A stretch of DNA of 27,971 nucleotides from a virus (lineage: Duplodnaviria; Caudoviricetes): positions 1-27,971 of IMG/VR virus record IMGVR_UViG_3300032332_000642; one strand, given 5' to 3'. Numbering within the stretch: position 1 is the first letter of the stretch; each line of letters opens with the position of its first letter. A program made the position numbers and the translations under genes. Below the pieces are notes generated by a model. That model was given only the letters and a program-made list of their open reading frames with translations, did not search any database and was not told where the DNA came from. This document shows positions 1 to 27,971 of the stretch, piece after piece.

Positions 1-622
1 CCTGGGGATTGGCCAAGGTGCGACCAAAGTGAGCGACCACATCAGCCACCCTATCGAGCAGCTGTTTGTGAGCGTCAGCCAGTCGGGCTGAGATCGCCTG
101 CTGGGCACGAGCCTGCAGTCGGGGGTCGTTGAGGTCGGTCTCCCGAGGGAATGCCTCAGCGTCGAAGGTCACCTCGAAGCGGGAGCGAAACTCGCTCGAG
201 CTGGAGGGGTACTCCGATGCGTTGAACAATCCGTTCAACCTGACCTCGGCCTCGTTCCTGATCTCGTCGTAGCGGGCACAAAGATCGTCGGCGAGTCGGT
301 TGAACTCATCGACCAGTCTGTTGTGTGCCTCGGTGAAGGCTTGGAACTGAGAGATCGGGAGAACCCGACTCTCGCCCCGCCACGGGAGGGTGAACTTGTA
401 GAAGTTCTCCCTGATCCGAGAGGCAACCTGATTGACCGACTTCAAATAGTCGGGTCGGATCAGTGCCTTGACGAATCGCCCGCCCTGACCTGCCGAGATC
501 GAGTGATTGGCCTCGACCTCGCTGGTGGCTTTACGATCCTGTCTGCCACCGATGAAACGCCTGATCGATAGATCGACCAGTCGAGCGTAGCTGTTGAGTT
601 GCGTTGTTGTTATGTTGTTCAT
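1..622 (-). CDS. Phage early protein, DUF3150-like (runs off the left edge of the window)
   Basis: Not in ORF track. ATG at 622 follows AGAAGGAG SD. Open to the window edge: MNNITTTQLNSYARLVDLSIRRF...KATSEVEANH...GRFVKALI...FTLPWRGESRVLP...RLNGLFNASEYPS..EFRSRF. The TLPW / LNGLF..EYP pattern resembles DUF3150-type phage proteins (recalled, not searched). Confidence 0.7.
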   Translation of the reverse strand, partial: MNNITTTQLNSYARLVDLSIRRFIGGRQDRKATSEVEANHSISAGQGGRFVKALIRPDYLKSVNQVASRIRENFYKFTLPWRGESRVLPISQFQAFTEAHNRLVDEFNRLADDLCARYDEIRNEAEVRLNGLFNASEYPSSSSEFRSRFEVTFDAEAFPRETDLNDPRLQARAQQAISARLADAHKQLLDRVADVVAHFGRTLANPQ

Positions 623-3289: not shown

Positions 3290-4697
3290 ACTGCAGAAGC
3301 TAAAGTTCCTGTCCACACTGGCGGGGTTCTCCAGCCACTACCTTGGAATGGACAGCCTCTACCCTTGGCAGATCCAGTGCATGGATGCTCTTGATGCTGG
3401 TGGCAGAGTAGCTGTCAGGGCACCCAACGGATCGGGCAAGTCCAGCTTCTTAGTGGTACCAGCCATCATCTGGCACTGCGCTGTATTCCCTAACAGCTAT
3501 GTGATCGTAACTTCTAACGTAGGCAGACAGATTAAGTCAGGCTTGTTTGCCACCGTACACAAGTATGCCTCCAAGCTGAAGGGCTGGACGGTTAACTCCA
3601 ACGAGCTGATCAGCCCGATTAACGGGAGGGCAGTGGCGTTTACCACGGACGAACCCCAGAGGATGGAGGGGTGGCATCCAGAGGGCAGCACCACGGGTGG
3701 CAAGGGCAACCTGATGCTGATCTATGACGAGGCCAAGTCCATACCTGCAGAGATCTGGCATGCAGGTGAACGCACCCAACCTAACCGCTGGTTAGCTATT
3801 AGCAGCACAGGTTCAGCAAACAGCTTCTTTGCCAAGTGCTTTAGGGAACATGCTAAGTTCTGGAAGACTTTCACTATTCCTATCGGCCAGTGCCCACATA
3901 TTACGGACGAGTCGATTAGAAGACTTAAGGAGCTGTATGGGGACGATCACCCGCTGGTCAGGAGCATGATCCACAACGAGTTTGTGGATGAGGCTGATAA
4001 CGAGACCGTCATCTCGGAAACCAAGATCCATGACTGCAGGGCTACACCCCCAACTCACTTTCCGATGGATAGGGTGGCTTTTATCGACTGGGGTGGGGCA
4101 GGGGTTGACGAGACTGCCGTGGCCATCATGGACGGGAACAAGCTGTTGCCTCTAATCATCATTAAGGATCGGGACGAGATGCGTACCGTCGGACGGGTAA
4201 TCAGGGAGCTGCGGGCGTTTCAGGTTAACCCCAAGCTGGTCTGGGCTGACAACGGGGGTATCGGGTCGCCCATGATCAGGCGCATGGACGAGCAGGGGTA
4301 CAGCGTCAACCGTGTGAACTTTGGTACGGCTGGGTTGGCTGGGTACGCCAACAAGGCTTCCGAGATGCTGTTTACGGCTGGCAAGATGATTGAGGACAGG
4401 GGAGTGATCCTGCCCAAGGACGACATCATGGATGGTCAGCTGTGTACCCGCAGGTTCTTTTGCACATCTAACGGAAGCATTAAGCTGGAGTCCAAGGCTG
4501 AATATAAGCAAAGGACAGGTGGAAGCAGTCCAGATCGTGCGGATGCAGCTGCGGGAGCCATCTGGGCTTATGTCAAGACCAGACCGAGCTTGACCTCAAA
4601 TGATGCTGGTGGTAGTCATTTGCAGACAGATGTATTCGGCAATACCATCCAAACTAACTTTGAAGATGCCAGAAGTGGCTTCGACGCTGGGGACTAA
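3273..4697 (+). CDS. terL: Terminase large subunit
   Basis: YPWQ Q-motif, Walker A APNGSGKS, Walker B LMLIYDEA, RNase H-like nuclease acidic motifs FIDWGG, ADNGGIG and SPDRADA. Confidence 0.95.
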   Translation: MSQMNELQKLKFLSTLAGFSSHYLGMDSLYPWQIQCMDALDAGGRVAVRAPNGSGKSSFLVVPAIIWHCAVFPNSYVIVTSNVGRQIKSGLFATVHKYASKLKGWTVNSNELISPINGRAVAFTTDEPQRMEGWHPEGSTTGGKGNLMLIYDEAKSIPAEIWHAGERTQPNRWLAISSTGSANSFFAKCFREHAKFWKTFTIPIGQCPHITDESIRRLKELYGDDHPLVRSMIHNEFVDEADNETVISETKIHDCRATPPTHFPMDRVAFIDWGGAGVDETAVAIMDGNKLLPLIIIKDRDEMRTVGRVIRELRAFQVNPKLVWADNGGIGSPMIRRMDEQGYSVNRVNFGTAGLAGYANKASEMLFTAGKMIEDRGVILPKDDIMDGQLCTRRFFCTSNGSIKLESKAEYKQRTGGSSPDRADAAAGAIWAYVKTRPSLTSNDAGGSHLQTDVFGNTIQTNFEDARSGFDAGD

Positions 4698-6536
4698 ATG
4701 ACCACGCAAGAGCTGTACGATGCTTTTTGCGATGACCTTAAAAAGCGAACCACTTGGGAGGATCGGCAGAAGGTTTGGTACACCATGTGCAATGGTGGAC
4801 TTCGCAGGAAGCGGAAACCTTGGCCGAACGCAGCCGACCTTCACTACCCTTTAGCGAACTCGATCATCAATAAGTTCGTACCGTTTTACATAAACCAGAT
4901 TTACTCAGCTGAGAATCTGGCCAGCTTTACCCCACGCAAACCTCAGATGCAGTCTCTGCGCTACGCAGCAGAGAGCTGGTTTAACTACATGTTGCGTGAG
5001 CGTTCTAATTTTGAAACCGAGATGATGGTCTATGTGTCGGCCATGCTCCGTTGCGGGATCTCGTTTATGAAGACCTCTTGGGATGAGGCCAACAGGTCGG
5101 TCAAGTTTGATGCCGTCAACCCGATGTACCTTGTGTTCCCGTACTACACCAAGGACATGGAGAGCTGTGATCGGATCTGCCACATCATGGAAATTTCTGA
5201 AGGCCAGTATCGTCGCAACGAGGCGTACAAGCAGGACGATGATTTTATCAAGCGGATCAAAGGCGAGGGGAACTCGGCTGGTGCTGGGGTTCGCTCGTAT
5301 GATCAGCACAAGCTAGGCAAGCAGGGTCTGACCGAGGGAAGCATGCGGGATAACATCATTATCTGGGAGTGCTACTATCGGGATGACAAGGGCAAGATCA
5401 TCGTGGAGACCTTTAGCCCGCAGGCTCCTGACGAACCTATTCGCCCGAAGTTCGAGCTTCCCTATGCACACGGGCAGATGCCGTTTGTGCCGTGCATGCT
5501 GGAGTTTACTCCAGACAAAGGTTTTTATTCCAGCCGTGGAGTTTGTGAAACTGTTGCAGCGTTTGAAGCTGCGTTGACCAAGACCATGAACGCCAAGGCC
5601 GATGCGATGAGCCTGTACAACTCACCGATGTTTTCCTCTGATCAGGACATACCCAATGTGAACAATATCAAATTCGGCACAGGGGTTCTCTTGCCCACGG
5701 GAGTTAAGCCAGTACTCATGCCCCAGCCTCCGATCAGCTTTGATCAGGAGATGGTGCAGATGCGTCAGGTCTCCGAGTACTTGGTGTCGATGCCTGACTT
5801 CGGCCTGACGCAGGGAAGACTCGGAAGCTCAAAGCCCCGCACGGCTACCGAGGTGCAGAATATCGGACAGCTGATGGGCGTGAACACAGATCTCCGCATT
5901 AAACTTTTCAGGCTGGCGTTGAGCGAAATCTACAAGCAGGCATATGCAATCCTAGTTGAGTACGCCCACGACCAGCTTCTCTTTGAATACCAGAACCAGT
6001 TCTCGGCTGTGCCCGCAGAGGCGATCATCTTTGATTACCAGATCAAACCTTCGGGCAGTGCTGACGGTGTGAACCGAGTCATGCAGTACCAGAAGGCTTT
6101 GGTGCGGTTCCAGACCCTCCGTAACGATCCGTACATTAACCAGCCAGAACTCCGCAAGGATCTGCTGGAGGTAGACGATCCCCACCTTGTCAACCGCATG
6201 CTGATCGATCCGCAGCTCAAGAAGCAGATGCAGGCTGAAGAAGCTGGAAGCGAGAATCTGTTGCTCGACCAAGGCTTCGGTGCTGTGGCTGTTGAGCCTG
6301 CCGACGATCACGAGGTGCATGTTCAGATCCATATGGATCGGTTGCAGTTGGCTGGTCAGCGTGGACAGCAGCTGGCTCAGGACAGCGGTGCTGCTTACAC
6401 CCAGCACTTACAGCAACACATCCAGTTCCTTTCGCAGACTAACCCGAACCTAGCCAAGCAGATCGGCGCACAGATTATGAAGGCTATGCAGACTGAGACC
6501 AAGAATGCTCAGTTCCAGCAGATGTTACCTCAATGA
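4698..6536 (+). CDS. Portal protein
   Basis: 612 aa directly after terL; KPWPNAA, RTATEV and DDHEVHVQIH motifs and a Q-rich C-terminus as in P22-like podovirus portals. Confidence 0.88.
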   Translation: MTTQELYDAFCDDLKKRTTWEDRQKVWYTMCNGGLRRKRKPWPNAADLHYPLANSIINKFVPFYINQIYSAENLASFTPRKPQMQSLRYAAESWFNYMLRERSNFETEMMVYVSAMLRCGISFMKTSWDEANRSVKFDAVNPMYLVFPYYTKDMESCDRICHIMEISEGQYRRNEAYKQDDDFIKRIKGEGNSAGAGVRSYDQHKLGKQGLTEGSMRDNIIIWECYYRDDKGKIIVETFSPQAPDEPIRPKFELPYAHGQMPFVPCMLEFTPDKGFYSSRGVCETVAAFEAALTKTMNAKADAMSLYNSPMFSSDQDIPNVNNIKFGTGVLLPTGVKPVLMPQPPISFDQEMVQMRQVSEYLVSMPDFGLTQGRLGSSKPRTATEVQNIGQLMGVNTDLRIKLFRLALSEIYKQAYAILVEYAHDQLLFEYQNQFSAVPAEAIIFDYQIKPSGSADGVNRVMQYQKALVRFQTLRNDPYINQPELRKDLLEVDDPHLVNRMLIDPQLKKQMQAEEAGSENLLLDQGFGAVAVEPADDHEVHVQIHMDRLQLAGQRGQQLAQDSGAAYTQHLQQHIQFLSQTNPNLAKQIGAQIMKAMQTETKNAQFQQMLPQ

Positions 6537-10054: not shown

Positions 10055-10104
10055 AACTGTTTAGCAGTTGACAGTAGCCAGTTGAGCTGTAGCACTTTCC
10101 ACAA
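10055..10104 (+). promoter_or_regulatory. Operator-like palindrome overlapping TTGACA promoter
   Basis: aactgtttagcagtt (10055-10069, perfect AACTG-N5-CAGTT); TTGACA at 10068-10073; -10 box degenerate. Confidence 0.5.
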
Positions 10105-13585: not shown

Positions 13586-13622
13586 TTGACTGCTAAGAAG
13601 CTACCAATAGAGTACCCAAGAG
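13586..13622 (+). promoter_or_regulatory. Sigma70-like promoter
   Basis: TTGACT, 16 nt, TAGAGT, 9 nt, ATG 13623. Confidence 0.5.
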
Positions 13623-14588
13623 ATGCCGAATTTTACCAAAGGGAAGACATTTACCTCAACTGAGGAGCTGACAAACACGAAGCTCCATCAGCTTGTTGAA
13701 GATGCGAGCATGAACGTGACGGCCATAACAAGCCTCACAGCTCTTGCCGATCCAGTTGCAGATACCGATACGCTTCCAATCGCTGATGACAGCGCAACTG
13801 CGATTCGCAAAGTTGCTGCTTCCAATTTTCTAAAGAAGAACGCCTCGGCAGTCTTTGATGCGGGTACGACAAGAATTACTGGAGTGGCCACGCCAACAGT
13901 TGGTTCAGATGCAGCAACCAAAACATATGCCGACACAAAGGTTTCCAAGACTGGCGATACCCTGTCTGGTTCGATTGACATGGGTTCCAACAAGATTACT
14001 AGCCTTGGCACTCCAACTGCTGGCACTGATGCTGCAACTAAAACATATGCAGATACGAAGGTATCCAAGTCTGGTGACACCATGTCTGGTGTCCTCGACA
14101 TGGGTTCAAGCAAGATCACAAACCTTGGGACACCAACCGCATCTGGAGATGCAACTACAAAAGCGTATGTTGACTCGATTGCTGTAGTCGCTGGGAATCT
14201 TCCAAATGTAAACGCATCAAATAATGGTTCGCTGTTAAGCGTAAGCGGTGGTGCTTGGTCTACGGTTGCAACAGATGCTGTAAGCACGGCACAGATTCAG
14301 CCACTAGCTGTAACTGGTGCAAAGATGGAGAACAGTGGCGTGGCAGCTGGAACTTACGGTGGTTCTGGTGCTATTCCGCAGATTACGATTGATGCCAAGG
14401 GTCGGATCACAAGTGCGCTCGCCTTTTCTGTTGGAGCTGCTGGTGGCATGTTTTTCGAGAACGATATTACGCTCAACTCAAACTACACTATAACGGCAAG
14501 TAAAAATGCAATGACTGCTGGTGCGATTAATATCGCAGACGGCGTAACCGCAACAGTTCCAAGCGGGTCAACTTGGACAATAGTTTAA
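13623..14588 (+). CDS. Tail fibre protein (proximal)
   Basis: Three ITx[LV][GA]TPTxxxDAxTKxY[AV]D repeats; AGTYG..AIPQITIDAKGRITSA; C-terminal NAMTAGAINIADGVTATVPSGSTWTIV. Confidence 0.85.
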   Translation: MPNFTKGKTFTSTEELTNTKLHQLVEDASMNVTAITSLTALADPVADTDTLPIADDSATAIRKVAASNFLKKNASAVFDAGTTRITGVATPTVGSDAATKTYADTKVSKTGDTLSGSIDMGSNKITSLGTPTAGTDAATKTYADTKVSKSGDTMSGVLDMGSSKITNLGTPTASGDATTKAYVDSIAVVAGNLPNVNASNNGSLLSVSGGAWSTVATDAVSTAQIQPLAVTGAKMENSGVAAGTYGGSGAIPQITIDAKGRITSALAFSVGAAGGMFFENDITLNSNYTITASKNAMTAGAINIADGVTATVPSGSTWTIV

Positions 14589-14589
14589 T

Positions 14590-15681
14590 ATGCCAATCTC
14601 AATTAACGGAACTGGAACGATTTCTGGAATCTCTGCTGGGGGGCTTCCGAGCGGTATTGTTACGGGAGACACAATTTCAAACGGTTCTATTTCCACAGCA
14701 GACATTGCTGACGGATCTATTACCGCACCAAAGCTGGGATACCAAAATTTTAATTTCCGCAACCGCATCATCAATGGTGATATGCGGATCGACCAGAGGA
14801 ATGCGGGAGCGAGTTCTGTGCCAGCAACTGATAGCTATACATACACCTCGATTGATAGGTATTTTACAAGCGTAAACACACCCGCTACATCAACTGCAAC
14901 TCGATCAACAAGTGCGCCAGCAACATTTTTATATTCATTAAAAATAGGAAGAAGTGGGTCAGGAACCGCTGGATTAAATACACTTGGGCAAGTTATTGAA
15001 ACAGATAATTCTAAAGACTTGGCTGGGTCTTCAGTCACATTATCCTTTTGGGCGAAAATTGGTGCTTCTGCAACTTTTTCCTCACTAAATGCCTATGTTT
15101 ACAGCGGGACAACTACGGATCAATCAGCATCATCGCTTCGAGGCGGGTGGACAGGACAAGCTACTGTTGCAAGCACAACAGTAACATTAACTACTACTTG
15201 GACAAAGTTTTCAGTTACTGGAGCCGTAGGATCTTCCGCATTACAATTAGCTGCTCAATTTGTTTTCACAACAGTAGGTGCTGCTGGTGCAGACGACAAT
15301 CTCTACATCACAGGAGTCCAACTCGAAGCAGGCTCAACCGCAACCGACTTCGAGCGCAGGCCGATTGGTACGGAGTTGGCTTTGTGTCAGAGGTATTATG
15401 AGCAAGTTGGTGGTAATACTGGAGACTTAAACTCTATAGCGTTGAAGGGCTATCAGCTTGTTGGGTCGTATTTAGCAAATCAATATATGTTCCCAGTTCA
15501 AAAGCGAGTTGCCCCAACAGCGACCGTAAGCGGAACATTTACGGCTGTAAATTGTGGGCAACCTACTGTATTAAATAGTGATACGAAAACTTGGTCATTT
15601 CACACGCTGGTTTCTGCTACTAACGCAATAGTCTTATACTCAAATAATTCTGGTTTAATAACATTTTCTGCGGAGCTATAA
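14590..15681 (+). CDS. Tail fibre/receptor-binding protein with carbohydrate-binding-like module, copy 1
   Basis: [16 protein letters not shown]...VTLSFWAK...[31 protein letters not shown]...SAEL. Confidence 0.8.
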
Positions 15682-15682
15682 T

Positions 15683-15838
15683 ATGTATAAACTAACGCAA
15701 TATAACTCTGTTGTCCGATTGCTAGACAACGCCTTCATCCCATTCGACCCAGCCAACACCGACTACCAAGCCTACCTAAAATGGCTTGCTGAGGGCAATA
15801 CACCCCTCCCAGCTGACCAAGAAGGAGAAACAAAATGA
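15683..15838 (+). CDS. Small tail-fibre-associated (chaperone-like) protein, copy 1 (51 aa)
   Basis: [51 protein letters not shown]; not in ORF track. Confidence 0.8.
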
Positions 15839-17223
15839 GCCTACTAAAAGCCAATGGCGTACAGTTTGGCCAATCTGGCACAGCTACAAACAACTTAACG
15901 CTCTCTGTACCAGCCTCACCCGATGGCACGATCAAGCTGGCGAGGGGCAATAGCGGTGCGACAACAGCTGATATTCTTAGTGTTAATTCGAGTGGTCAGG
16001 TTGGGATTGGGACTGCTTCTCCAACCGCAAATCTTCACGTTGTAAAAACAACATCTCAAACGGATATTGATTCGGCAACGCAAGCTGTTTCGATTATAAA
16101 CACAGCATCAGACACAAGCGGTAATCTTACAGGAATTAGGCTCAGGCAAGACAATGTAACAAATGTGGCTCAAGGCTATATTGGATTATCAAGCACAGGA
16201 AATCTTGCAACAAGAGCAAACTTAATTATAGCCACCCCAAATACATCTGGAAATTCCACAGAACGCCTCCGCATTAATTCGAGTGGGCTGGTTGGGATTG
16301 GGACAACGAGTCCTGCGAATTTACTACATGTTCGTAAAGCAAGTGGCGGTGATACTGCTCAATTTGAGGGACAAGGCGCATCTGATTCTAAAATTAATAT
16401 AACTAATACAGGAGTATCAAATACATATCTTGGCTTCAATAATTCTGGTTCTACAAACGCTGAAGGCATTGCAACTGGTGTGTCGTATCTTGCAAATGCC
16501 AATGGTTTCCCATTGGCTTTTAGCACATCCAACGCCGAACGCCTCCGAATTGATGCGAGTGGGAATTTGTTGGTTGGGAAAACATCACCAAGCACATCAA
16601 CTATTGGATTCCAGTTTGATTTAGCTAACCAGAAGATTGCTTCTGGGGCTAATGGGGGTGCATCAGCGTTTTTTAATAGAAATGGTGATGATGGAATGAT
16701 AGTTCAAATTGCACAAGATGGAACTGTTGAGGGAACAATATCAGTAAGTGGAACAACTGTTTCATATAACGGAGGACATCTTTCAAGGTTCTCGCAGTTG
16801 CCATCTGGACAGCGAGATCCAGCAATTAAAAAAGGAACTGTATTATCCAATCTTGACGCAATGTGTGAATGGAGAGATGCGGATGGGAACCTTCTCCCTA
16901 ACGAGCAGTTAAACAAAGTTAAAATTTCAGACGTTGAAGGCGATTTGAATACAGCAGGCGTGTTTGTTAATTGGGACGATGACGATCAAGACAATCCATA
17001 CGATCTGAATATGGCAATGACAGGAGATATGATTATCCGTATTGCCCAAGGGACAAGCGTTAATCGTGGTGACTTGTTAATGTCTGCTGGCGATGGAACT
17101 GCCAAACCTCAAGGAGATGATATTATCCGATCCAAGACCATTGCTAAAGTAACCTCAACTAATGTTACCTGTACATACGAGGATGGAAGTTATTGCGTCC
17201 CCTGTGTGTTGATGGCCTGCTAA
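15835..17223 (+). CDS. Tail fibre with putative C-terminal intramolecular chaperone domain
   Basis: Repeats of ERLRIxxSGxVGIGTxSP; C-terminal [30 protein letters not shown]; AAGGAG SD. Confidence 0.8.
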
Positions 17224-17249
17224 ATGAACCTAACCGCACTGGAGAACAA

Positions 17250-18365
17250 ATGAGCATCTCAATCAACGGCACGAACGGCGTAACCTTCAATGACGGCAGT
17301 CTACAGAAAACCTCTGCTTTGACTGGCTTCCGCAACCGTATCATCAATGGTGATATGCGGATTGATCAGAGGAATGCTGGGGCGAGCATTACACAAACAA
17401 CTGCAAATGACTTTGTTGTTGATAGGTGGAGCGTGACTGGATCTATTGCATCAAAATTCACGGCACAAAGAAATGCTGGTTCAGTAACTCCTCCATCTGG
17501 ATACACGAACTATATTGGGATAACCTCTCTTTCAAGTTATAGCGTGGGAGCAGGCGACTATTTTAGAATAATGCAACCAATAGAAGGATTTAATGTATCT
17601 GATTTTAGCTTTGGGACAGCCTCTGCATTGCCAATAACACTATCTTTTTGGGTTAGGGCATCAATTACTGGAACGTATGGTGGGGCTATATCAAACGCAT
17701 CCCAAGTACGAGGATACGCATTTACATATTCAGTAGGCAGTTCTAATACATGGGAGAAAAAGACAATTACAGTTTCTGGCGATACATCTGGAACATGGTC
17801 GACTGACAATGGTGTTGGTATATATTTAATAATTGGACTTGGTGCTGGGTCAAATTTCTCCGCAACAAGTGGATCTTGGTTAACTCAAAATTATATAAAT
17901 ACGGCCACAGGAGCAACCAGCGTTGTCGGCACAAACGGAGCAACCTTCTATATCACAGGTGTCCAACTCGAAGCAGGCTCAACCGCAACAGATTTTGAGC
18001 GTAGACCGATTGGGACGGAGTTGGCGTTGTGCCAGAGGTATCTACAAACTTGGGGAGGCAATACACTTTACGAACGAGTTGCATTTGGCTATGCAGTATC
18101 TTCCGTAAATGTGGAGGTTTTTTTACCTCGTTTCTCTGTTCCAATGCGCACGGCTCCTTCTTTGAATGCAAACTCACCATCAAATTTTAGAGTTTCTGAT
18201 CCTTCTGGCAGCATTGTCTGTACTTCTATTTCTATTTTGCAATCAGCACCAAATTCTTGTGGAATCCTAGCACAAGTTGCATCTGGGCTAACAACATACA
18301 GGGCAATGTCCCTAGACACCAATAATACATTGTCAGCACTTCTTAGTTTAGGAGCAGAACTATGA
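17250..18365 (+). CDS. Tail fibre/receptor-binding protein, copy 2 (paralog of 14590-15681)
   Basis: Start MSISINGT at 17250 with GGAG SD (compare MPISINGT); same anchor motifs; ends GAEL. Confidence 0.8.
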   Translation: MSISINGTNGVTFNDGSLQKTSALTGFRNRIINGDMRIDQRNAGASITQTTANDFVVDRWSVTGSIASKFTAQRNAGSVTPPSGYTNYIGITSLSSYSVGAGDYFRIMQPIEGFNVSDFSFGTASALPITLSFWVRASITGTYGGAISNASQVRGYAFTYSVGSSNTWEKKTITVSGDTSGTWSTDNGVGIYLIIGLGAGSNFSATSGSWLTQNYINTATGATSVVGTNGATFYITGVQLEAGSTATDFERRPIGTELALCQRYLQTWGGNTLYERVAFGYAVSSVNVEVFLPRFSVPMRTAPSLNANSPSNFRVSDPSGSIVCTSISILQSAPNSCGILAQVASGLTTYRAMSLDTNNTLSALLSLGAEL

Positions 18366-18535
18366 TAATTACTTATAGACTTTGCAAAAACATTTACGGA
18401 GTCATTGAAACAGTATTTCGTTCTGATGGTTGGTCTATCCCTTTCGACCCAGCCAACACCGACTATCAAGCCTACTTAAAATGGCTTGCCGAAGGCAACA
18501 CTCCGCTTCCTGCTGACGAACCCAGCGAGGGATAA
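18362..18535 (+). CDS. Small tail-fibre-associated protein, copy 2 (57 aa)
   Basis: [57 protein letters not shown]; ATGA coupling. Confidence 0.8.
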   Translation: MIITYRLCKNIYGVIETVFRSDGWSIPFDPANTDYQAYLKWLAEGNTPLPADEPSEG

Positions 18536-19246
18536 ATGACCCTCGACCAGATCGCCAACCAAGTCTGCATCAAGACCCACGACACCTCCGTTGGTGCCGT
18601 AGCTGCTGTAAAAACATTCTGTAAGAACCGCTACCAGATGATCTGGGACAGCCAGCTCTGGGCAAACAGCATGGCCGTGACAACTCAGGCCATCAGTTCT
18701 GGAAGTTCCATTGTCACAATCTCTGACACGAACATGGATCTCCCTGTCGCAGTCAAGATCGGCACAACCGCAATCGACCCAGCCAACTACGGGTCGGCAT
18801 TTATGATGTCACCAAGTTCTTTCACTGATTCTGGAAATACAACATCTTTCGTGATCCTTTCGAGATCTGACGCTGGTAATATAAGGCTACAGCTTTTGAG
18901 TGCTTCTTCCGAAGCTGGAACACTCTCTGTTCTCTGCAAGACCAAGATCCGTGTAACAAACAACGGGGTGTCTGCCTACCGCTCGATGGAGCTAGATGAT
19001 GATGTGTGTGTAATCAATACCGCAGAGCAGGCACTACTTACACTTGTCGAGGCCGACATGCTGGAATACAAACAGGCTTACGCCAAGGCTCAGGCCAAAC
19101 AGTCCGAAGCCCTCACTCTTTTGTCATTAGCCCGCAACGTCGAGCGTTCTCAGGGTGCATCCCGCTTTGAGGTCTCAGCTGCGTTTAACGGTGAGTGGAG
19201 CCGTGATGACTGGGACTACGGGGGAAGCACGATCAGCTTCCAATAA
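18536..19246 (+). CDS. Head-to-tail adaptor (T7 gp11/P22 gp4-like)
   Basis: MTLDQIANQV...KTFCKNRYQMIW...W helical N-terminus; size and position before the nozzle-like gene. Confidence 0.65.
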   Translation: MTLDQIANQVCIKTHDTSVGAVAAVKTFCKNRYQMIWDSQLWANSMAVTTQAISSGSSIVTISDTNMDLPVAVKIGTTAIDPANYGSAFMMSPSSFTDSGNTTSFVILSRSDAGNIRLQLLSASSEAGTLSVLCKTKIRVTNNGVSAYRSMELDDDVCVINTAEQALLTLVEADMLEYKQAYAKAQAKQSEALTLLSLARNVERSQGASRFEVSAAFNGEWSRDDWDYGGSTISFQ

Positions 19247-19249
19247 GCC

Positions 19250-20854
19250 ATGCCTATTATTTTTGACGAAGCCCTAGACACGCCTCTGGTCTTCGACGGG
19301 CAGAGGCAGTTCAGCGGTGGGGAAGACTCTAACACTCAGGCGAGGATCTTGGGTGAGAACCAGTGTACAAGTCTGGTCAATGTCGAGTTAGACGAGAACG
19401 GGCTTGTTCATACTAGGCTTGGCCTTGTTCTCACTCCTTCCACTGGGGTTAACTCCTATATTAGCGGTCTTGCTTCCTACCGAAACACAAGCACAACGCA
19501 GATGGTTGCATTCTTTGGTGGCAATCTTAAGTACCTATCAACTTGGGCTACTGGATGGCAGACTGGGGCATCATCTGCATATACATCTGGCAACAGGGTC
19601 TATACGGCTACGGTAGCAGATAAGCTCTACTTTATCGACGGATCTGCGGGTGGTCAGCTTAAGTTCTGGGACGGTTCTGCTGTCACTACCGTGCCAACCA
19701 CTGGAGCAGTATCAGCCCCTGCTGGAATTAATAGGTTAATCAGCACGAGGGGTAGGCTATTTGCCGTAACCGCAAGCAACCCAGACACCCTTTATGTGGG
19801 AGATTTCCTGACATCAAACTTTGATACCGTAACAAATGCAATTAGGATAGGTGGAGACTCTTCTCCAATTACTGCAATCGTCGAGTGGACGGGTGACCGT
19901 ATCGCAGTATTTAAGGAGAACAGGGTATTTGTTGTTAGCGGAATTACCCAGACATCTGCTGGTGGTTTCTCAGTCGAAACAGTTGAAAACGCCAACGGTG
20001 CCCTGAGTCAGTCGGCCACGCTTAGGGTTGGATCTGATGTTATGTTTATGTCTCGTGACGGGGTGCGCTTGTTAAGCCGAACCCTACAGGGGCAGGAGCA
20101 AGCGGTAAGCCTTCCAATATCGATGCCGATTGAAGGCAAGATAAAGCAGATCGATATTTCACAGCCGAGCGAGATCTCTATGGCATTCCACGAAAATACG
20201 GTGATAGTTTCAGCTAAGACATCTTCTGGTGGGACTATTACCCTTTGTTTTGACACCGCAAACAAGTGTTGGCTTGGTGAGTGGTCTGGGAGGTTCTATC
20301 CATATACAGGCATTCAGGCAACTAATGGAATAACCCTGCCAAACAATGTTGCTTCAACAGCCTTATTTACTGGTCTTGTAATAGGTGATAGGTCGGGTCG
20401 TATTTACCTTTGGAGGCGTGGGCATAACTTTGGATCTTCTACTGCGCTTACATATGCAGACGATGGTTCAGCAACTGCGGATGGATCTGTCGGCATACCA
20501 ACATCGATTGCATCTCGTGGGATGACATTTTCGGAGGCTGGATCTAGGAAGCTGGGGAACAGGTGTGAGATTGAGTTTTATGAATCAGACACAACGGCAC
20601 TCATAGAGTATATTTTGGATAATGATTATTGGGAGACGCTGGCAACAATAGCAACATCAGCAGCACCTCTTACACTTCCATTTAATCTTCCCAAGTATTT
20701 GTCTGGATTCCCAGCCCTAAAAAACAAGGGATATACAATCATAGATCAAGACTACTTCAGGGAGATCATACTTCGGGTAAGCTCTTCATCTGGCTATCTG
20801 GCAGTCCGTGGGATGTCTGTATCAGCCTACCTCCAGCCCTACCTAGTCACTTGA
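19250..20854 (+). CDS. Tail nozzle/stabilisation protein (P22 gp10/T7 gp12-like)
   Basis: FSGG, NVELDENG..TRLG, RGRLFAV and RIAVFKEN propeller-like motifs. Confidence 0.75.
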   Translation: MPIIFDEALDTPLVFDGQRQFSGGEDSNTQARILGENQCTSLVNVELDENGLVHTRLGLVLTPSTGVNSYISGLASYRNTSTTQMVAFFGGNLKYLSTWATGWQTGASSAYTSGNRVYTATVADKLYFIDGSAGGQLKFWDGSAVTTVPTTGAVSAPAGINRLISTRGRLFAVTASNPDTLYVGDFLTSNFDTVTNAIRIGGDSSPITAIVEWTGDRIAVFKENRVFVVSGITQTSAGGFSVETVENANGALSQSATLRVGSDVMFMSRDGVRLLSRTLQGQEQAVSLPISMPIEGKIKQIDISQPSEISMAFHENTVIVSAKTSSGGTITLCFDTANKCWLGEWSGRFYPYTGIQATNGITLPNNVASTALFTGLVIGDRSGRIYLWRRGHNFGSSTALTYADDGSATADGSVGIPTSIASRGMTFSEAGSRKLGNRCEIEFYESDTTALIEYILDNDYWETLATIATSAAPLTLPFNLPKYLSGFPALKNKGYTIIDQDYFREIILRVSSSSGYLAVRGMSVSAYLQPYLVT

Positions 20855-20889
20855 CATCTGCCAACTGCTAGGCATACAGAAGCATATAT
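20851..20889 (+). promoter_or_regulatory. Possible promoter
   Basis: TTGACA at 20851 with half-site AACTGCTA at 20863; -10 box weak. Confidence 0.35.
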
Positions 20890-22626: not shown

Positions 22627-23553
22627 ATGCCAGATTATTACGGAGGAGTAGCACAGGCTGGGGCGTACATGATGAACTCTGGTCTGGATGCGATTACATC
22701 GCAGAGGAAGCTGGACGCAGAGAAAGAGATGCAGGCTCAAAGAATTGCAGCTCAAGAAAGAATGCAGTCAGCTAGGTCTAGTGGCGGTGGTGCTTTCAGT
22801 GGCAACGATCCAGTTTCAAAGGGTGCTAGGTCTTTTACGGCAATCACGGCAGCACTTAACGCACACTCAGATGAACAGATTAACCTTATGGGTGAAATGT
22901 CGAAGCTGGACAAGATGATGCAGGAGCGTGGCTACGGTACAGATGAAGATAACACTGCAAAGCAAAGGTTACAGGCACGACTGCAGAACAGTGACTATGC
23001 AATGAAGATGATGACAAAGTCTCTTGGTGGCGGGAAGTTCGAGTACAACACGACAGATGCAGACGGATCAACTGTTAAGGCAGTATTTGATTCCGCTGCA
23101 GATCTTGAGGCTTACAAGTCCATGTTTAAGGGCAACGCCCCAGAGATCGCAGCTGAGAAGAACTCAAGCATTCTTGGTGGTATCTTTGGTAGTAAGGCAA
23201 CTGCACCAAGACAAGCAGCCCCAACTGGCGCAGATATGAGTCCAGTACCAGTTGAGAGAACCAAGCCCATGTCAACTGGCGATCAGGTTGACTCTATGAT
23301 GCAGGAAAGTGGAGTTGCTGAACCAGCTGAAAACCCAGCAGCAAGAGGTGGTACTGGTCGCCGAGTTCGTAGCAAAGAAGATATTGCGTCTGAAAGTGCG
23401 AACGCCAGCAAGATGAAAATTGAAGCACTCAAAAAAGAATTTGAATCAGTCAAAGGGCAAAAGAACGCAAAAGGAAATGTGAACACTGCAGCCATGCGTA
23501 GAATTGCAGCAGACATTATCGAGGAAGAAAAAAAGCTGAAGTCTGGTAACTGA
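22627..23553 (+). CDS. Internal virion (ejection) protein
   Basis: Helical, A/S/G/M-rich; lies between the pilot gene and the giant ORF. Confidence 0.65.
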   Translation: MPDYYGGVAQAGAYMMNSGLDAITSQRKLDAEKEMQAQRIAAQERMQSARSSGGGAFSGNDPVSKGARSFTAITAALNAHSDEQINLMGEMSKLDKMMQERGYGTDEDNTAKQRLQARLQNSDYAMKMMTKSLGGGKFEYNTTDADGSTVKAVFDSAADLEAYKSMFKGNAPEIAAEKNSSILGGIFGSKATAPRQAAPTGADMSPVPVERTKPMSTGDQVDSMMQESGVAEPAENPAARGGTGRRVRSKEDIASESANASKMKIEALKKEFESVKGQKNAKGNVNTAAMRRIAADIIEEEKKLKSGN

Positions 23554-23555
23554 TC

Positions 23556-26500
23556 ATGGCGATCACACCTTGGGATGACATAAAAGCCCAAGTAGGGTAC
23601 GACGAATTACCCACAGAGGGTAAAGTAGATACGATCAACAAGTACTCCCAGTACGTTCAGGAGTATTACACGCAGGTTGAGCCAAGAGATGCAAAGGAGG
23701 TTGGTCAGGCTTCTGATGAGTTTGTAAAGATTGCATCGCAGGATGCTCTGGGTGACCTCGGTGCGGTTGAGCGTGGATCTGCATTCCTTGGCAATATCTA
23801 CAAGGGCGCATCTGGAACTTTCACATCAGCATTTAAGGCAGCTGCCCTAGCGCAGCAAGCCATTGGCGAGTCTCTCGGAAACTACGATGACAACACTCCA
23901 GTCACTGAGCGTGATATCTATAAGATCGCACAGGATATCGACGAGAGTGTTAAGCAGACAACTGGCATCGAAGATCCCCGTCTACGCAATGACTTCATTA
24001 ATACCCTACTACCCCAAGGTCTTGGCAGTGCGCTTGGGTTCTTTGGTGTAGCTGCAGCTGCAGCAGCAGCTGCGCCTGAAGCAGCCGTTGGTGCTGTCGG
24101 ACTTGGTACAGCAGCTGTGCTTGGAGCTGCAACAAACGCTGGGTCTACCTACGAGGAGGCAAGGCAGGCTGGGGCAAACGAGTTTACGTCGAGGGCATCA
24201 GCCCTAGCTGGCGGTGCTATCGGACTGACAGAGGCAATACCTCTCGGTGGTCTTGCTGGAAGATTAACGGCTGGAATTGCCAAGAGATCCATCCTTCGTG
24301 GTGTGGTCGAGGGAGCTACCGAAGAGTTCTTGCAGGAGACTGGTTCTCAGATGGCCAACAACTTCGTTGCCTCTAAGTTTGCTGGGTACGATCCGAACAG
24401 GGGAATCATGGATGGGGCACTGCAGTCTGGTGCGGTAGGACTCGTAACTGGAGGACTGATCGGTGGCGGTGTGAATGCAATCACCCGTGATAACGAGGCT
24501 TTCTATGCTGAGAAACTATCCGACGAGCTTAAGAGCAAAGCAGACCTAGCTGCATCACTAACTCCAGAACGACTGACGCAGATTACTGAGGCAGCAAGAA
24601 ACGCTAACACAACCACACAGCAGAGGATTGATATTGAGACTGGGGAAACTGAGACAACCTCAACCCCCAAGACTGTGTTCGGGGATCGGCTTGCTGGAGA
24701 AGTGCCAGACATTGGCCAGAACCCTGCGATCAATAGCGTACCCCTTGGTCGTAGCGTTAGTCAGGATGAGGATGGCAACAATACAGAGACATTTACTTTC
24801 CATACCCCTCAAGGTCTTTTGTGGGAGGCAGAGTTCAGGACGGGTGAGCCAGTCAGGGTTCGTGACGTAACCGATGACAGCCCCCTTCTAAACCCAATCA
24901 CTAGCCCAGCAGATCCGAGGACTGCGACACGATCCCAATTCACGGGTCGCATCATCTCCCCAACCAGCAGTATCGCAAAAGAGTTCGGCTTGGAGACAGA
25001 GCAGGAGATGGATCGCAGGTTGATCGCAGAAGCCCAGCGTGAGATGCAGCTTGGCAGGGTTACAGATCAAACACTTCTCCCAGACAATCAGATCATCCCA
25101 GAATCCGTGTCACGAGATGATCGTGGTGTGGCTCGTCAGGTTGTCCTGAACAATGAGATCGAAAGGCTTTACAAGATCCGTGAGGGTGTACTCGCAAGGC
25201 AGATCCTTGTCGGCGAAAACCCTAACGCTGGCACAACCGAGTACGATCCTAACACGGCTAGAGAAGTTATCAGGTACGACTCAGAGGGTAACAAGATCGA
25301 GAATAAGCAGGAGACCTCGCAGAGGGTCGCCCGACTTAATCGCATGATCGGGATGCGGGAGACTGAGCTTCGTGGACTAACGGCAAGACCAGAGGGATAC
25401 ATCCTAGCCTCCGAGCGCAACACACCGCCAAGCGCATCTCAGAAGCTCTCGCTTGTCCAAGGTTTCCAGAACCTGTGGAACAGCATCTCATCTCCAGCCC
25501 TACGCAATGCCATCACTTTTGAGGTGGGTGACATCACTCCTTTAATTGAATCAGGTCAGGTTCCAAAGGGTGCTGTTGCCTACTACAAGCGGGCTTCGGA
25601 CGGCAGGAAGGCCATGATCTTCTTGTCGGACAAGCTCGCCACGATGCCTATGGCTCGCAGGGAAATGATCCATGAGCTTGGCCACGCCTTCTGGGACACG
25701 CTCCCAGCTGGTGTACAGGCTGAGATCAGGGGTCTATGGAGGGCAGAGACAGAGTCTAGGACAGGTGCTTTGTTCGATGAGTTTGGTGGACTGAAGGCCG
25801 AGGTGAGTCCTCGTGTCATGGAGTCAGTACAGGAGTTCTTCTCCGAGCGTTTGGCTTGGACAAACGACCAGTGGGCTAAGGGACTCAGCGAGCAGAACAG
25901 TGTCATGGACAAAGCTGGTCGTGCTTTCAGAAACCTGCTCGACAGGTTCCTTCGATACACGGGTCACGGGGAGAGGCTGAACCTAGAGTTCAGATCATTC
26001 CTAGACCAAGGTGACAGGTTTAAGGGATTACGGACAAGGGTCGAGCGGGCTGTTCGGGCTGGCCGTGCTGGCATTAACGAGGAGCCACAGACTTCGATCC
26101 GTGGCCTCGCCAAGTATGAGCAGCTGTTTGATTACACAAGGAACAACCCAGATGGATTTACTGTTGACCCCGTGTCATTCAGGGTTCCAACGACTGGCTA
26201 CATTGTAGCACCGTCCAAGAACACAGAGGGTATTATGCCCGTAAACATGAGCAGGGAAGAGGGCATCAAGGCTTTCAGATCCTACCTTCTCAGCAACGAC
26301 GATATCTTCAGGGCTTTCGGTATTGGCCAGAGGTTGGCGAATGTTGAGGGGGCGGGTGCGTACTTTGGTGGATGGATGAAGACCACAGAAAACAACGAGC
26401 CACTACCTGTAGATCAGCGTCAGTTTGTTTATGATATTTCTTTCGTTCTCGACAATAAGACCGATGCGCTTTATGTTGCTGAAAATGGCAAACAAGATGC

Positions 26501-27971
26501 AATCTTCGACATCTCCGCTGGGCAAACAATCGACACAGCCCCAGCAGTCAGAGACCTACGAGCCAGTGGCCTTTACACGCCCTCAGACAGGGGAAGACTA
26601 CAAGAGCTGGGTGGAAAAGTTGATTACCTCGCTGGACGAAAAGGGAGTCTTCGGACAGCGGTTGAGTCCGTTAGACGAGCCGTCAACCCAGCTGTCCAAG
26701 CGGGACGAATCCAGTCTCAAGGCAGAAGCCTTCAAGAAGCAGGGTCGCCAGAAGTAGTAGCCTCGACACGGGGCGCAGTATCCGTCGAGTCGGTGCCGTT
26801 AAGGCGTGATGGTGTAAGGCTTGAGAAGCCTTCAGTAAAAGAAGTAGCCAATTTCCTTCAGCAAAGAAGTATTGATCGAATCCAAAAGCCACTCACTAAG
26901 GATACTCCAGCCGATATTAGAATGGCTCAGTACCTTATAAACACATGGTCTGAGGTATCCTATCAGCTCCAGCAGGAAGACACTGGCATGACTTGGTACA
27001 GTCAGGATATCGAGCAGATGGAGGCAGACCTTGCCCAGCTGTACCCAGAGTCGATTGATTCCATTCCAGAAAAGATGGTCTTGTTCAAGGCCATGCTTGT
27101 TGGCAATTCATTCAGCCAGACACCCAAGGCAGAGACGCTAACCACAATGCGGATCTGGGATTCCTCCAACCAGCAGTTCCCAGTTAAGCCAAGACAGGAT
27201 GACGGCAAGGGATGGACTGTCCGTGGCGGGACGGTGGAGATTTACCTGAATAGGATTAATAGGCTGGTTGCGGAGAAGGGTGAGAAGGGTGCTGCCGACT
27301 GGTTGTTGTCGAAACATCCAATTAAAGAACTCAGGGAATACAACCCAAACGTGGGTGGCAAGCAGGATGATCTTAAGTATGGGTCAATGATCTTCGGCCA
27401 GAAGGGTGGCGCATATCACCTCAACATGAACGGCAACTATGACGTTCTTACTGCTGATCTTCACTTTAGCCGTATGTGGAATAGGATGATGGGCACGGTT
27501 CTTGACGCTAACGGTGAGATCATTCAGGCACCCACACCAGCGGAACTTAAGATTCAGGATGAAGCAGTTAGATTTGCAGCCGATAAACTTGGCTTGAGTG
27601 TTGCTGAATTACAGGCAGTATCGTGGGTATATGAGATCGGACTTTGGAAAGACCTCGGGGCAAAAATCGGATACTACAAGCACTCCGATGGAACAGCCAA
27701 GCTCCTCCAAGAGCGAGGCATTCAGCGCAGAGAAGTTATACCAGACAGTCGAGCGATTGAGGAAAGAAGGCAGACTGCCCTCAGTCGAGCAAACGCTCTC
27801 AGTGATGGACGAGACACGCAGCAAGTTTTACCCGAAGAAGTAAGAGCCTCCACTCGTGGGGCACAGCCTCGTAACGAGGTAATCCAGCAGGCAGCTAACG
27901 ACTTCTTTGATGGCAGGATATCCAGAGAAGAACTAAACAGACTCTCTGAAGAACAGAAGCCAGCCCGTCCA
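23556..27971 (+). CDS. Giant polyvalent internal-virion/ejection protein (truncated by window end, at least 1472 aa)
   Basis: Hand-translated, no stop from ATG 23556 to the end. Gly/Ala hydrophobic helices and EGATEEFLQE (~24000-24480); zincin HELGH (25671-25685); GFT/GY.VA/GGW/YDIS/QDAIFD domain (~26110-26550); WY/FGQK/TADLH/ELQAVSW domain (~26780-27700). Confidence 0.9.
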   Translation, partial: MAITPWDDIKAQVGYDELPTEGKVDTINKYSQYVQEYYTQVEPRDAKEVGQASDEFVKIASQDALGDLGAVERGSAFLGNIYKGASGTFTSAFKAAALAQQAIGESLGNYDDNTPVTERDIYKIAQDIDESVKQTTGIEDPRLRNDFINTLLPQGLGSALGFFGVAAAAAAAAPEAAVGAVGLGTAAVLGAATNAGSTYEEARQAGANEFTSRASALAGGAIGLTEAIPLGGLAGRLTAGIAKRSILRGVVEGATEEFLQETGSQMANNFVASKFAGYDPNRGIMDGALQSGAVGLVTGGLIGGGVNAITRDNEAFYAEKLSDELKSKADLAASLTPERLTQITEAARNANTTTQQRIDIETGETETTSTPKTVFGDRLAGEVPDIGQNPAINSVPLGRSVSQDEDGNNTETFTFHTPQGLLWEAEFRTGEPVRVRDVTDDSPLLNPITSPADPRTATRSQFTGRIISPTSSIAKEFGLETEQEMDRRLIAEAQREMQLGRVTDQTLLPDNQIIPESVSRDDRGVARQVVLNNEIERLYKIREGVLARQILVGENPNAGTTEYDPNTAREVIRYDSEGNKIENKQETSQRVARLNRMIGMRETELRGLTARPEGYILASERNTPPSASQKLSLVQGFQNLWNSISSPALRNAITFEVGDITPLIESGQVPKGAVAYYKRASDGRKAMIFLSDKLATMPMARREMIHELGHAFWDTLPAGVQAEIRGLWRAETESRTGALFDEFGGLKAEVSPRVMESVQEFFSERLAWTNDQWAKGLSEQNSVMDKAGRAFRNLLDRFLRYTGHGERLNLEFRSFLDQGDRFKGLRTRVERAVRAGRAGINEEPQTSIRGLAKYEQLFDYTRNNPDGFTVDPVSFRVPTTGYIVAPSKNTEGIMPVNMSREEGIKAFRSYLLSNDDIFRAFGIGQRLANVEGAGAYFGGWMKTTENNEPLPVDQRQFVYDISFVLDNKTDALYVAENGKQDAIFDISAGQTIDTAPAVRDLRASGLYTPSDRGRLQELGGKVDYLAGRKGSLRTAVESVRRAVNPAVQAGRIQSQGRSLQEAGSPEVVASTRGAVSVESVPLRRDGVRLEKPSVKEVANFLQQRSIDRIQKPLTKDTPADIRMAQYLINTWSEVSYQLQQEDTGMTWYSQDIEQMEADLAQLYPESIDSIPEKMVLFKAMLVGNSFSQTPKAETLTTMRIWDSSNQQFPVKPRQDDGKGWTVRGGTVEIYLNRINRLVAEKGEKGAADWLLSKHPIKELREYNPNVGGKQDDLKYGSMIFGQKGGAYHLNMNGNYDVLTADLHFSRMWNRMMGTVLDANGEIIQAPTPAELKIQDEAVRFAADKLGLSVAELQAVSWVYEIGLWKDLGAKIGYYKHSDGTAKLLQERGIQRREVIPDSRAIEERRQTALSRANALSDGRDTQQVLPEEVRASTRGAQPRNEVIQQAANDFFDGRISREELNRLSEEQKPARP
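26449..26484 (+). promoter_or_regulatory. Internal sigma70-like promoter for nested ORF 1
   Basis: TCGACA (26449-26454), 17 nt, TATGTT (26472-26477), 7 nt, ATG 26485. Confidence 0.45.
26485..26757 (+). CDS. Nested +1-frame ORF 1 (90 aa), candidate antidote/regulator
   Basis: MANKMQSSTS...FTRPQTGEDYKSWVEKLITSLDEKGVFG...; amphipathic helix; the host frame here is an R/G-rich linker. Confidence 0.5.
   Translation: MANKMQSSTSPLGKQSTQPQQSETYEPVAFTRPQTGEDYKSWVEKLITSLDEKGVFGQRLSPLDEPSTQLSKRDESSLKAEAFKKQGRQK
27631..27843 (+). CDS. Nested +1-frame ORF 2 (70 aa; alternative start 27688), candidate antidote/regulator
   Basis: TATCGT (27619-27624), 6 nt, ATG 27631, with TTGAGT 19 nt upstream of the -10 box; core AFSAEKLYQTVERLRKEGRLPSVEQTLSVMDETRSKFYPKK looks helix-turn-helix-like. 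Confidence 0.5.
   Translation: MRSDFGKTSGQKSDTTSTPMEQPSSSKSEAFSAEKLYQTVERLRKEGRLPSVEQTLSVMDETRSKFYPKK

Follow-up and report, generated by a model that had tools for sequence, protein, structure and literature searches.

Conserved small genes in the +1 frame behind two enzyme-like modules of a giant phage protein: candidate silencers of their own domains

Each of two consecutive enzyme-like modules of a giant phage protein is accompanied, in the +1 frame, by a small conserved gene, and the account that we hold to be marginally more probable than its opposite is that each small protein binds and silences its own domain during phage assembly. The broader question addressed is how host-directed enzymes can be made and packaged without harm to the producing cell.

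Two nested frames in a modular polyvalent protein

The window, which is the whole stretch of 27,971 nucleotides analysed here and makes up one complete contig, ends inside a giant gene that is the last of a podovirus-like structural cluster, behind genes for terminase subunits, portal/adaptor, major head, tail fibre and internal-virion-like proteins. The relevant features are as follows.

23556..27971, + strand: giant polyvalent, putatively ejection-type protein, 1472 aa, 3'-open at the window end
25476..26060, + strand: module predicted to be a zincin-like metallopeptidase (MPTase), with HELGH at aa 706 (nt 25671)
26091..26105, + strand: upstream boundary motif in degenerate form, TSIRG (relative P0012 has ASVRG)
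26112..26594, + strand: domain 1, alpha/beta, weakly SAM-lyase-like, with invariant GFT, G-x-W (aa 938-940), D960 and Q980
26449..26477, + strand: promoter-like TCGACA-17-TATGTT before ORF1, unproven
26485-26757, + strand: nested ORF1, a divergent F1-family member of 90 aa in the +1 frame, with its selected core at about 26560-26668
26751..26777, + strand: boundary motif EVVASTRGA, module exchange point, holds the ORF1 stop
26835..27722, + strand: domain 2, all-helical, DUF7178/phrog_3842-related, predicted HhH DNA-glycosylase-like, with invariant K1283 and D1301
27631-27843, + strand: nested ORF2, an F2-family member of 70 aa in the +1 frame, with a selected core of two helices at about 27721-27840
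27837..27863, + strand: boundary motif EVRASTRGA, module exchange point, holds the ORF2 stop

By its sequence, the giant protein is a modular phage polyvalent protein, with a full length of 2343-2555 aa in close relatives. A single polypeptide carries the MPTase motif, the alpha/beta domain 1, the helical domain 2 and an exchangeable third module, all of these activities being predicted. Residues 60-364 give a weak match (E 1e-4) to the virion RNA polymerase family phrog_2206, and the MPTase module falls short of the cut-off against Pfam Peptidase_M78 (E 0.035). Window-related sequence is present in lake-water runs. Elsewhere in the window lie two paralogous tail-fibre genes (14590-15681 and 17193-18365, both phrog_4492), and the stretch 15700-15835 resembles 18400-18536, the first preceding the gene at 15835 and the second that at 18536; together, the paralogs and the similar upstream stretches suggest a duplicated tail-fibre block.

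Both nested frames lie on the same strand as the longer open frame that wholly encloses them, and both stop within EV[VR]ASTRGA, as a preliminary description of this DNA had reported. When the synonymous codons of the giant gene were shuffled 2000 times, 79% of the trials yielded a pair of +1 stretches with lengths of 90 and 70 codons or more, and the ORF1 and ORF2 regions remained open in 5% and 27% of shuffles, respectively; since the ORF lengths are at chance level in the window alone, the case for the genes rests on relatives. This chance level, together with the presence of a conserved domain-1 helix in the main frame over ORF1, is what can be said for regarding the ORFs as side effects of a conserved main frame and of codon bias in the linkers.

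Several further features that the preliminary description had put forward proved less telling. Amphipathic cores do not discriminate, the hydrophobic moments of 0.56 and 0.73 comparing with 0.42-0.80 in 10 other +1 stretches. The placement of the ORFs over the linkers holds in part, the first 25-35 codons overlapping the last helices of the folded domains, and the shared end point is a local feature, with the stop lying within the ASxRG motif at 6 of the 53 distinct domain-1 loci. In composition, Cys and Trp together account for 0-0.3% of residues in five small-protein families vs 4.7% in 10 other +1 stretches.

Conservation of the nested genes in relatives

Within the window clade (6 and 4 sequences), variants were counted at main-frame codon positions 1/2/3 as alleles per column, with relatedness not modelled. 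On this basis the counts were 11/2/4 in the ORF1 core vs 42/38/104 in domain 1 (Fisher p 0.001, relatedness not modelled) and 9/4/1 in the ORF2 core vs 41/25/121 in domain 2 (Fisher p 7e-5, relatedness not modelled). Within the cores, variability is lowest or close to lowest at the third positions of the main frame, and the +1 protein is conserved better than the main frame. The N-terminal part of ORF2 (first 28 codons; 4/2/13, p 1) varies as the main frame does, so that protein-level selection would act on the core alone; among its ATGs, that at 27631 alone is shared by every one of the 6 clade members, L007 having ACG in place of the inner one at 27688. Three other clades tested display a shift from main-frame position 3 to position 1 (p 1e-4 to 7e-18), the signal being weak or saturated in the clade of Limnohabitans phage DC33 and, within the L030 clade, in the C-terminal part. 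The check that the preliminary description had proposed, conservation and selection of the +1 ORF in homologs, came out positive, in that core substitutions follow the +1 frame for both ORFs, and selection on the nested ORFs as proteins is supported.

For domain 1, a search of 50%-identity representatives returned 106 proteins, many of them 2000-4000 aa long, and an alignment-based scan confirmed 104 viral stretches, the best 80 of which were taken to give, with the window, 81 rows. The anchor motif is present in 69 of the 81 rows, which collapse to 53 distinct sequences, and a +1 ATG ORF was found at all 53 of these motif-anchored loci, starting -3 to +27 codons from the motif. Eight of the 12 rows without the motif carry F1 from an ATG, and the remaining 4, which have no ATG, match the F1 HMM (E about 1e-12). 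The +1 frame of L238, L240, L245 and L248 contains an intact F1 with no ATG at the usual place, and TTG is the likely start. A single +1 family, F1 (consensus roughly LTxVKPxMSxEEIxxNLxxxLKxQGIxV), sits at the domain-1 end in all of the best 80 of 104 loci, down to 27% identity.

Frequent +1-frame stops, named beforehand as the mark of a spurious frame, were not found in domain-1 homologs: across 35 representatives at 90% identity, codons +20..39 contained no stop among 700 and codons +40..59 contained 7 among 698, vs 18-76 per bin elsewhere, and +2-frame stops were unchanged across the ORF slot in the same representatives. At the level of clusters (60% identity), 20 of 20 hold a +1 ORF in the slot vs a background of 0.08 at random positions in the same loci, the slot having been chosen post hoc with the data already seen. 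Window ORF1 matches an F1 HMM built without its own clade (E 7e-5), a match that is not independent of main-frame homology. The F1 proteins predicted by gene callers form 22 clusters, and a search starting from the F1 protein returned 4 loci, all already in the domain-1 set.

For domain 2, two scans confirmed 225 and 344 stretches, of which 80 and 79 loci, respectively, were taken; together with earlier loci, these gave 166 rows (3 without anchor, 136 distinct) and 27 clusters, 25 of them with a main frame open long enough to test. The slot holds a +1 ATG ORF of at least 44 codons in 24 of these 25 clusters vs a background of 0.18, and a +2-frame ORF in 0 of 25. At least four different small-protein families occupy the slot, and a few of the 24 (L011, L029 and L086) resemble no small-protein family.

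One of these families, F2, also occurs as a separate gene. In 8 viral loci, F2 lies downstream of a terminal or near-terminal domain 2, in frames 0, +1 and +2, and several of the free-standing genes are preceded by GGAG or GAGG sites. An HMM built from 5 free-standing F2 genes matches window ORF2 (E 4e-8) and not ORF1, and F2 is nested again in L312, a locus found by its domain alone and with 29% domain identity. The free-standing form is decisive for ORF2 as a gene family. Set beside the low main-frame third-position variability and the better conservation of the +1 protein over the cores, these non-overlapping F2 homologues largely refute the explanation of the ORFs as by-products of the main frame, and on comparative evidence it is very probable that the nested ORFs are real genes.

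Expression, module exchange and candidate function

In the preliminary description, each nested gene was assigned an independent leaderless promoter with the same geometry as the intergenic promoters of this genome. The hexamers are present as described, TCGACA-17-TATGTT-7-ATG before ORF1 and TTGAGT-19-TATCGT-6-ATG before ORF2. Those of ORF1 are retained as TCGACA-17-TACCTT in a 53% identical relative, a retention that conservation of the underlying L-D and Y-x codons can explain; L010 lacks the -10 box of ORF2. A promoter consensus scan of 23300-27971 gave 1 hit vs 2.6 expected. The likeness to intergenic promoters is thin, as a TAnnnT box ending 6-9 nt upstream occurs at 4 of 25 other start sites in the window, with a matching -35 at one only (13623). 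TTGAC-type -35 elements are also visible at 13586-13613, 10067-10095 and 20851-20889, upstream of the genes at 13623, 10105 and 20890, and in a pattern scan only that of 13623 has a TAnnnT box at standard spacing.

Across representatives, TAnnnT boxes at 5-8 nt were found in 2 of 20 for domain 1 and 5 of 26 for domain 2 (background 9% and 5%), whereas anti-Shine-Dalgarno pairing of -5 kcal/mol or lower was found at 15 of 20 and 20 of 26 (14% and 19% of other +1 ATGs), the score being the best of several ATGs per representative, which inflates the domain-2 figure. These proportions run against independent leaderless promoters, and a conserved leaderless sigma-70 transcript for the nested genes finds no support, the -10 box being present in few representatives; a local promoter for ORF1 in the window clade is possible. 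Because Shine-Dalgarno sites are present in most relatives, internal initiation on a long mRNA would be the general rule; such a site is absent at both window ATGs.

That absence from the window-clade ATGs, the N-terminal parts that are not clearly selected and a few F3 matches fused to other proteins are the observations on which a role of the +1 frame in translation control could draw, either through a frameshift-shortened polyprotein with a helical tail or through the tuning of downstream modules. Such a role appears highly improbable: F2 also exists as free-standing genes, in each of the three frames, several of them with ribosome-binding sites of their own, and Shine-Dalgarno-like sites are found at 15 of the 20 domain-1 representatives against a 14% background.

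Another line of evidence concerns module exchange at the boundary motif, which had been claimed from the window alone and which the relatives bear out, different modules following ASTRG or ASARG in L001, L009 and L177/P0012. Beyond the second boundary, relatives carry a gp82-like module (L001) or a zincin-like module (L009) or pass directly into the C-terminal region (P0002-P0004, L010), and contigs of two RNA runs diverge from the window at 27856 into that region. At the first boundary of L177/P0012, ASARG is followed by a different helical domain in slot 2 and then, in this one lineage, by a distinct +1 ORF preceded by a GGAAGGAG site; since the replacement domain brings a different nested ORF, the exchanged unit would be the domain together with its nested gene. 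This L177 ORF spans about 3826-4056 (76 codons), and its domain, P0012 aa 1105-1560, is helical and glycosylase-like-looking. In P0002-P0004, aa 1430-1445 consist of tandem boundary motifs, an empty slot, where other relatives have the third module. No convincing nested gene was found at the third module (gp82-like or zincin-like) of close relatives, nor at the MPTase.

The coupling of small genes to domains is loose, and the statement that each small family follows its domain across very distant phages is supported by sequence comparison. A metagenome search from the free-standing F2 alignment gave 35 loci, of which 7 were removed as spurious and 28 kept; in 17 of the 28, domain 2 or its tail immediately precedes the small gene, some of these matches being duplicates or coming from contigs already used for training; 4 have too little sequence upstream, and in 7, among them L295 and several loci in bacterial-looking contexts, no domain 2 is seen there. 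Family F3 (PGLTRE family; 18 loci) is found behind domain 2 in 13 cases, behind another domain in 1, nested in an unrelated protein in 2 and fused in 2. In a quick tree of 54 domains, partner families clustered, and all F2 loci, nested or free, except L020 share one branch (support 82) that also holds L028; as kin share labels, the tree shows co-inheritance, not co-evolution.

The two domains themselves resemble known enzymes to different degrees. The domain-2 AF2 model (pLDDT 91) retrieves EndoIII/OGG/AGOG glycosylases in all of its top 15 Foldseek rows, with prob up to 0.98 and E 0.29 or worse, which is not significant, and 10-17% identity. DUF7178 is detected in 25 of 45 members, and K1283 and D1301 are invariant in 45 of 45. 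Domain 2 is predicted to be HhH-glycosylase-like, its helical fold and its invariant Lys and Asp within G-x-K-x-G and T-x-D-x-H/W motifs being putatively shared with HhH glycosylases (EndoIII, OGG, AGOG) and DUF7178; the two invariant residues may correspond to the hairpin Lys and catalytic Asp of HhH glycosylases.

Domain 1 is weakly SAM-lyase-like. A weak fold match would give it the alpha/beta sandwich of the SAM lyases T3 SAMase and Svi3-3, and its G-x-W, D-x-S and Q can be likened by eye to SAM-lyase Gly56-x-Tyr58, Glu69-x-Ser71 and Gln104 as given in passages of PMC7877911 and PMC12255297. The invariant G, D and Q follow, again by eye, the order of Svi3-3 Gly56, Glu69 and Gln104, with Asp replacing the expected Glu, and the first spacing of these residues is 11 in short domain-1 homologues, as in the SAM lyase of the same passages. 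According to a passage of PMC7877911, phage SAM lyase is highly toxic upon expression, so a domain of such kind would need control. Stand-alone short domain-1 proteins are represented by P0030, P0031 and P0044, which retain the C-terminal helix that in the window overlaps ORF1; two of them have hydrophobic, signal-peptide-like N-terminal segments.

A protein that is made late yet acts in the next cell needs a removable brake, and the events may be pictured as follows: ribosomes would start internally on the late structural mRNA and make the small partner; inside the cell that produces the phage, this partner would keep its domain inactive; packaging and ejection of the giant protein would proceed without the partner; and the domain, perhaps released by the MPTase at ASxRG, would act in the next host. 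As to origin, a two-gene unit of domain and small gene may have been captured into the middle of the polyprotein, whose frame was then extended over the small gene, giving the R/G/Q-rich linker. The overprinting of the preliminary description, in which the small gene was laid over the linker, probably ran in the reverse direction, since the small gene is also free-standing and is the better-conserved reading over the core, which makes the polyprotein linker look like the newcomer frame.

A small, fast-replaced partner behind an enzyme-like domain, in the same exchange unit and with orphans elsewhere, amounts to an effector-immunity layout. We judge it probable, by this analogy, that the small proteins act on the upstream domain, and put at an even chance the more specific proposal that they inhibit it. 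A role as acidic DNA mimics was rejected, the small proteins being neutral to basic. The wider generalization, in which polyvalent proteins are strings of swappable effector and antidote cassettes, every toxic module having a +1 inhibitor in the following linker, is tentative and falls slightly below an even chance.

The same positional and tree evidence would also suit domain-specific helpers, that is, folding or packaging chaperones or activating subunits, as the sign of the interaction is not given by the data. We consider helpers unlikely: several different small families serve domain 2, and short domain-1 proteins of 145-200 aa exist, seen as proteins alone. Turnover of partner families is typical of antitoxin or immunity proteins.

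Quite unlikely, too, is the possibility that the small genes encode independent phage proteins, engaged in host takeover or regulation, which are cassette-mates of the domains by descent and co-expression and do not act on them. In its favour are the orphan F2 genes in bacterial-looking contexts, the intact downstream F2 gene of L295, where domain 2 has apparently been deleted from the polyvalent protein, and the nesting of F3 in an unrelated protein (L267, L268). However, F1 accompanies domain 1 in all of the best 80 of 104 loci, and the retention of a long dual-coding stretch suggests a functional tie; orphan immunity genes, moreover, are common. The orphan F2 genes in bacterial-looking contexts are those of L294, L296, L297, L298, L301 and L304, and in L296-L298 the F2 gene begins exactly where another small, conserved ORF ends. 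In L267 and L268, the F3-like +1 ORF lies after a small domain inside an unrelated phage protein of more than 400 aa.

Significance and relation to known systems

Standard annotation misses such nested genes. In phage DC33 (L012, PQ492659), GenBank lists only the giant gene over two +1 ORFs, one at 5133-5348 (the F3 gene after domain 2) and one at about 5979-6170 behind another domain, presumably acetyltransferase-like (no family hit). The second of these ORFs has 14 distinct relatives with ribosome-binding sites. The taxonomy line of PQ492659 gives Inoviridae for a phage of 39 kb whose giant gene measures 9.4 kb, and looks mislabelled. With its named host, DC33 lends itself to ribosome profiling and to virion proteomics.

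Each domain now has a named, clonable candidate partner, which makes a direct test possible. If the small proteins are inhibitors, otherwise unclonable effector domains would become tractable and several new small-protein families would be gained. Should the tentative cassette generalization hold as well, R/G-rich linkers would map a large unannotated set of small inhibitors and mark toxic modules, and the targets of these inhibitors would be DNA glycosylase-like, SAM-lyase-like and acetyltransferase-like enzymes.

Polymorphic toxin effector-immunity pairs and type II toxin-antitoxin systems consist of an enzyme-like domain followed by a small, variable partner gene, with exchange at junctions and orphan partners. 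The domains and nested genes described here have the same layout, with the partner directly behind the domain; unlike in effector-immunity pairs, several domains share one frame and the partner is embedded out of frame, the likeness being one of layout. Embedded out-of-frame genes are represented by lambda Rz1 in Rz and Bacillus comS in srfAB, in each of which a small same-strand gene lies wholly inside a longer one. These are single, fixed cases, whereas here nesting recurs per module and alternates with a free-standing form.

A further parallel is offered by the Rpn intragenic antitoxins, which, in the passages of PMC10327210 drawn upon, are inhibitors produced from within the gene of their target, as the candidates here would be. 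The Rpn antitoxin is the target's own C-terminal domain translated separately, whereas the nested genes encode unrelated proteins in another frame, one per module. The giant protein in turn shares with the polyvalent proteins (Iyer et al. 2017, PMC5512222), as passages of that paper present them, a multi-domain make-up, a place in the virion gene cluster and the combination of an HExxH MPTase with unrelated enzyme-like domains, and the same passages raise cassette-like recombination and MPTase self-processing. The words 'overlap', 'linker' and 'glycosylase' are absent from the main text of PMC5512222, and nested partner genes are not described in the passages drawn upon; neither domain 1 nor domain 2 matches a named polyvalent-protein family in Pfam.

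A search of the open literature returned no paper joining embedded genes, effector-immunity cassettes and polyvalent proteins, and there is a real chance that the arrangement is a general, undescribed design rule. Each of these three elements is known separately; what is added here is the pairing of domain with nested partner, together with the free-standing form of that partner.
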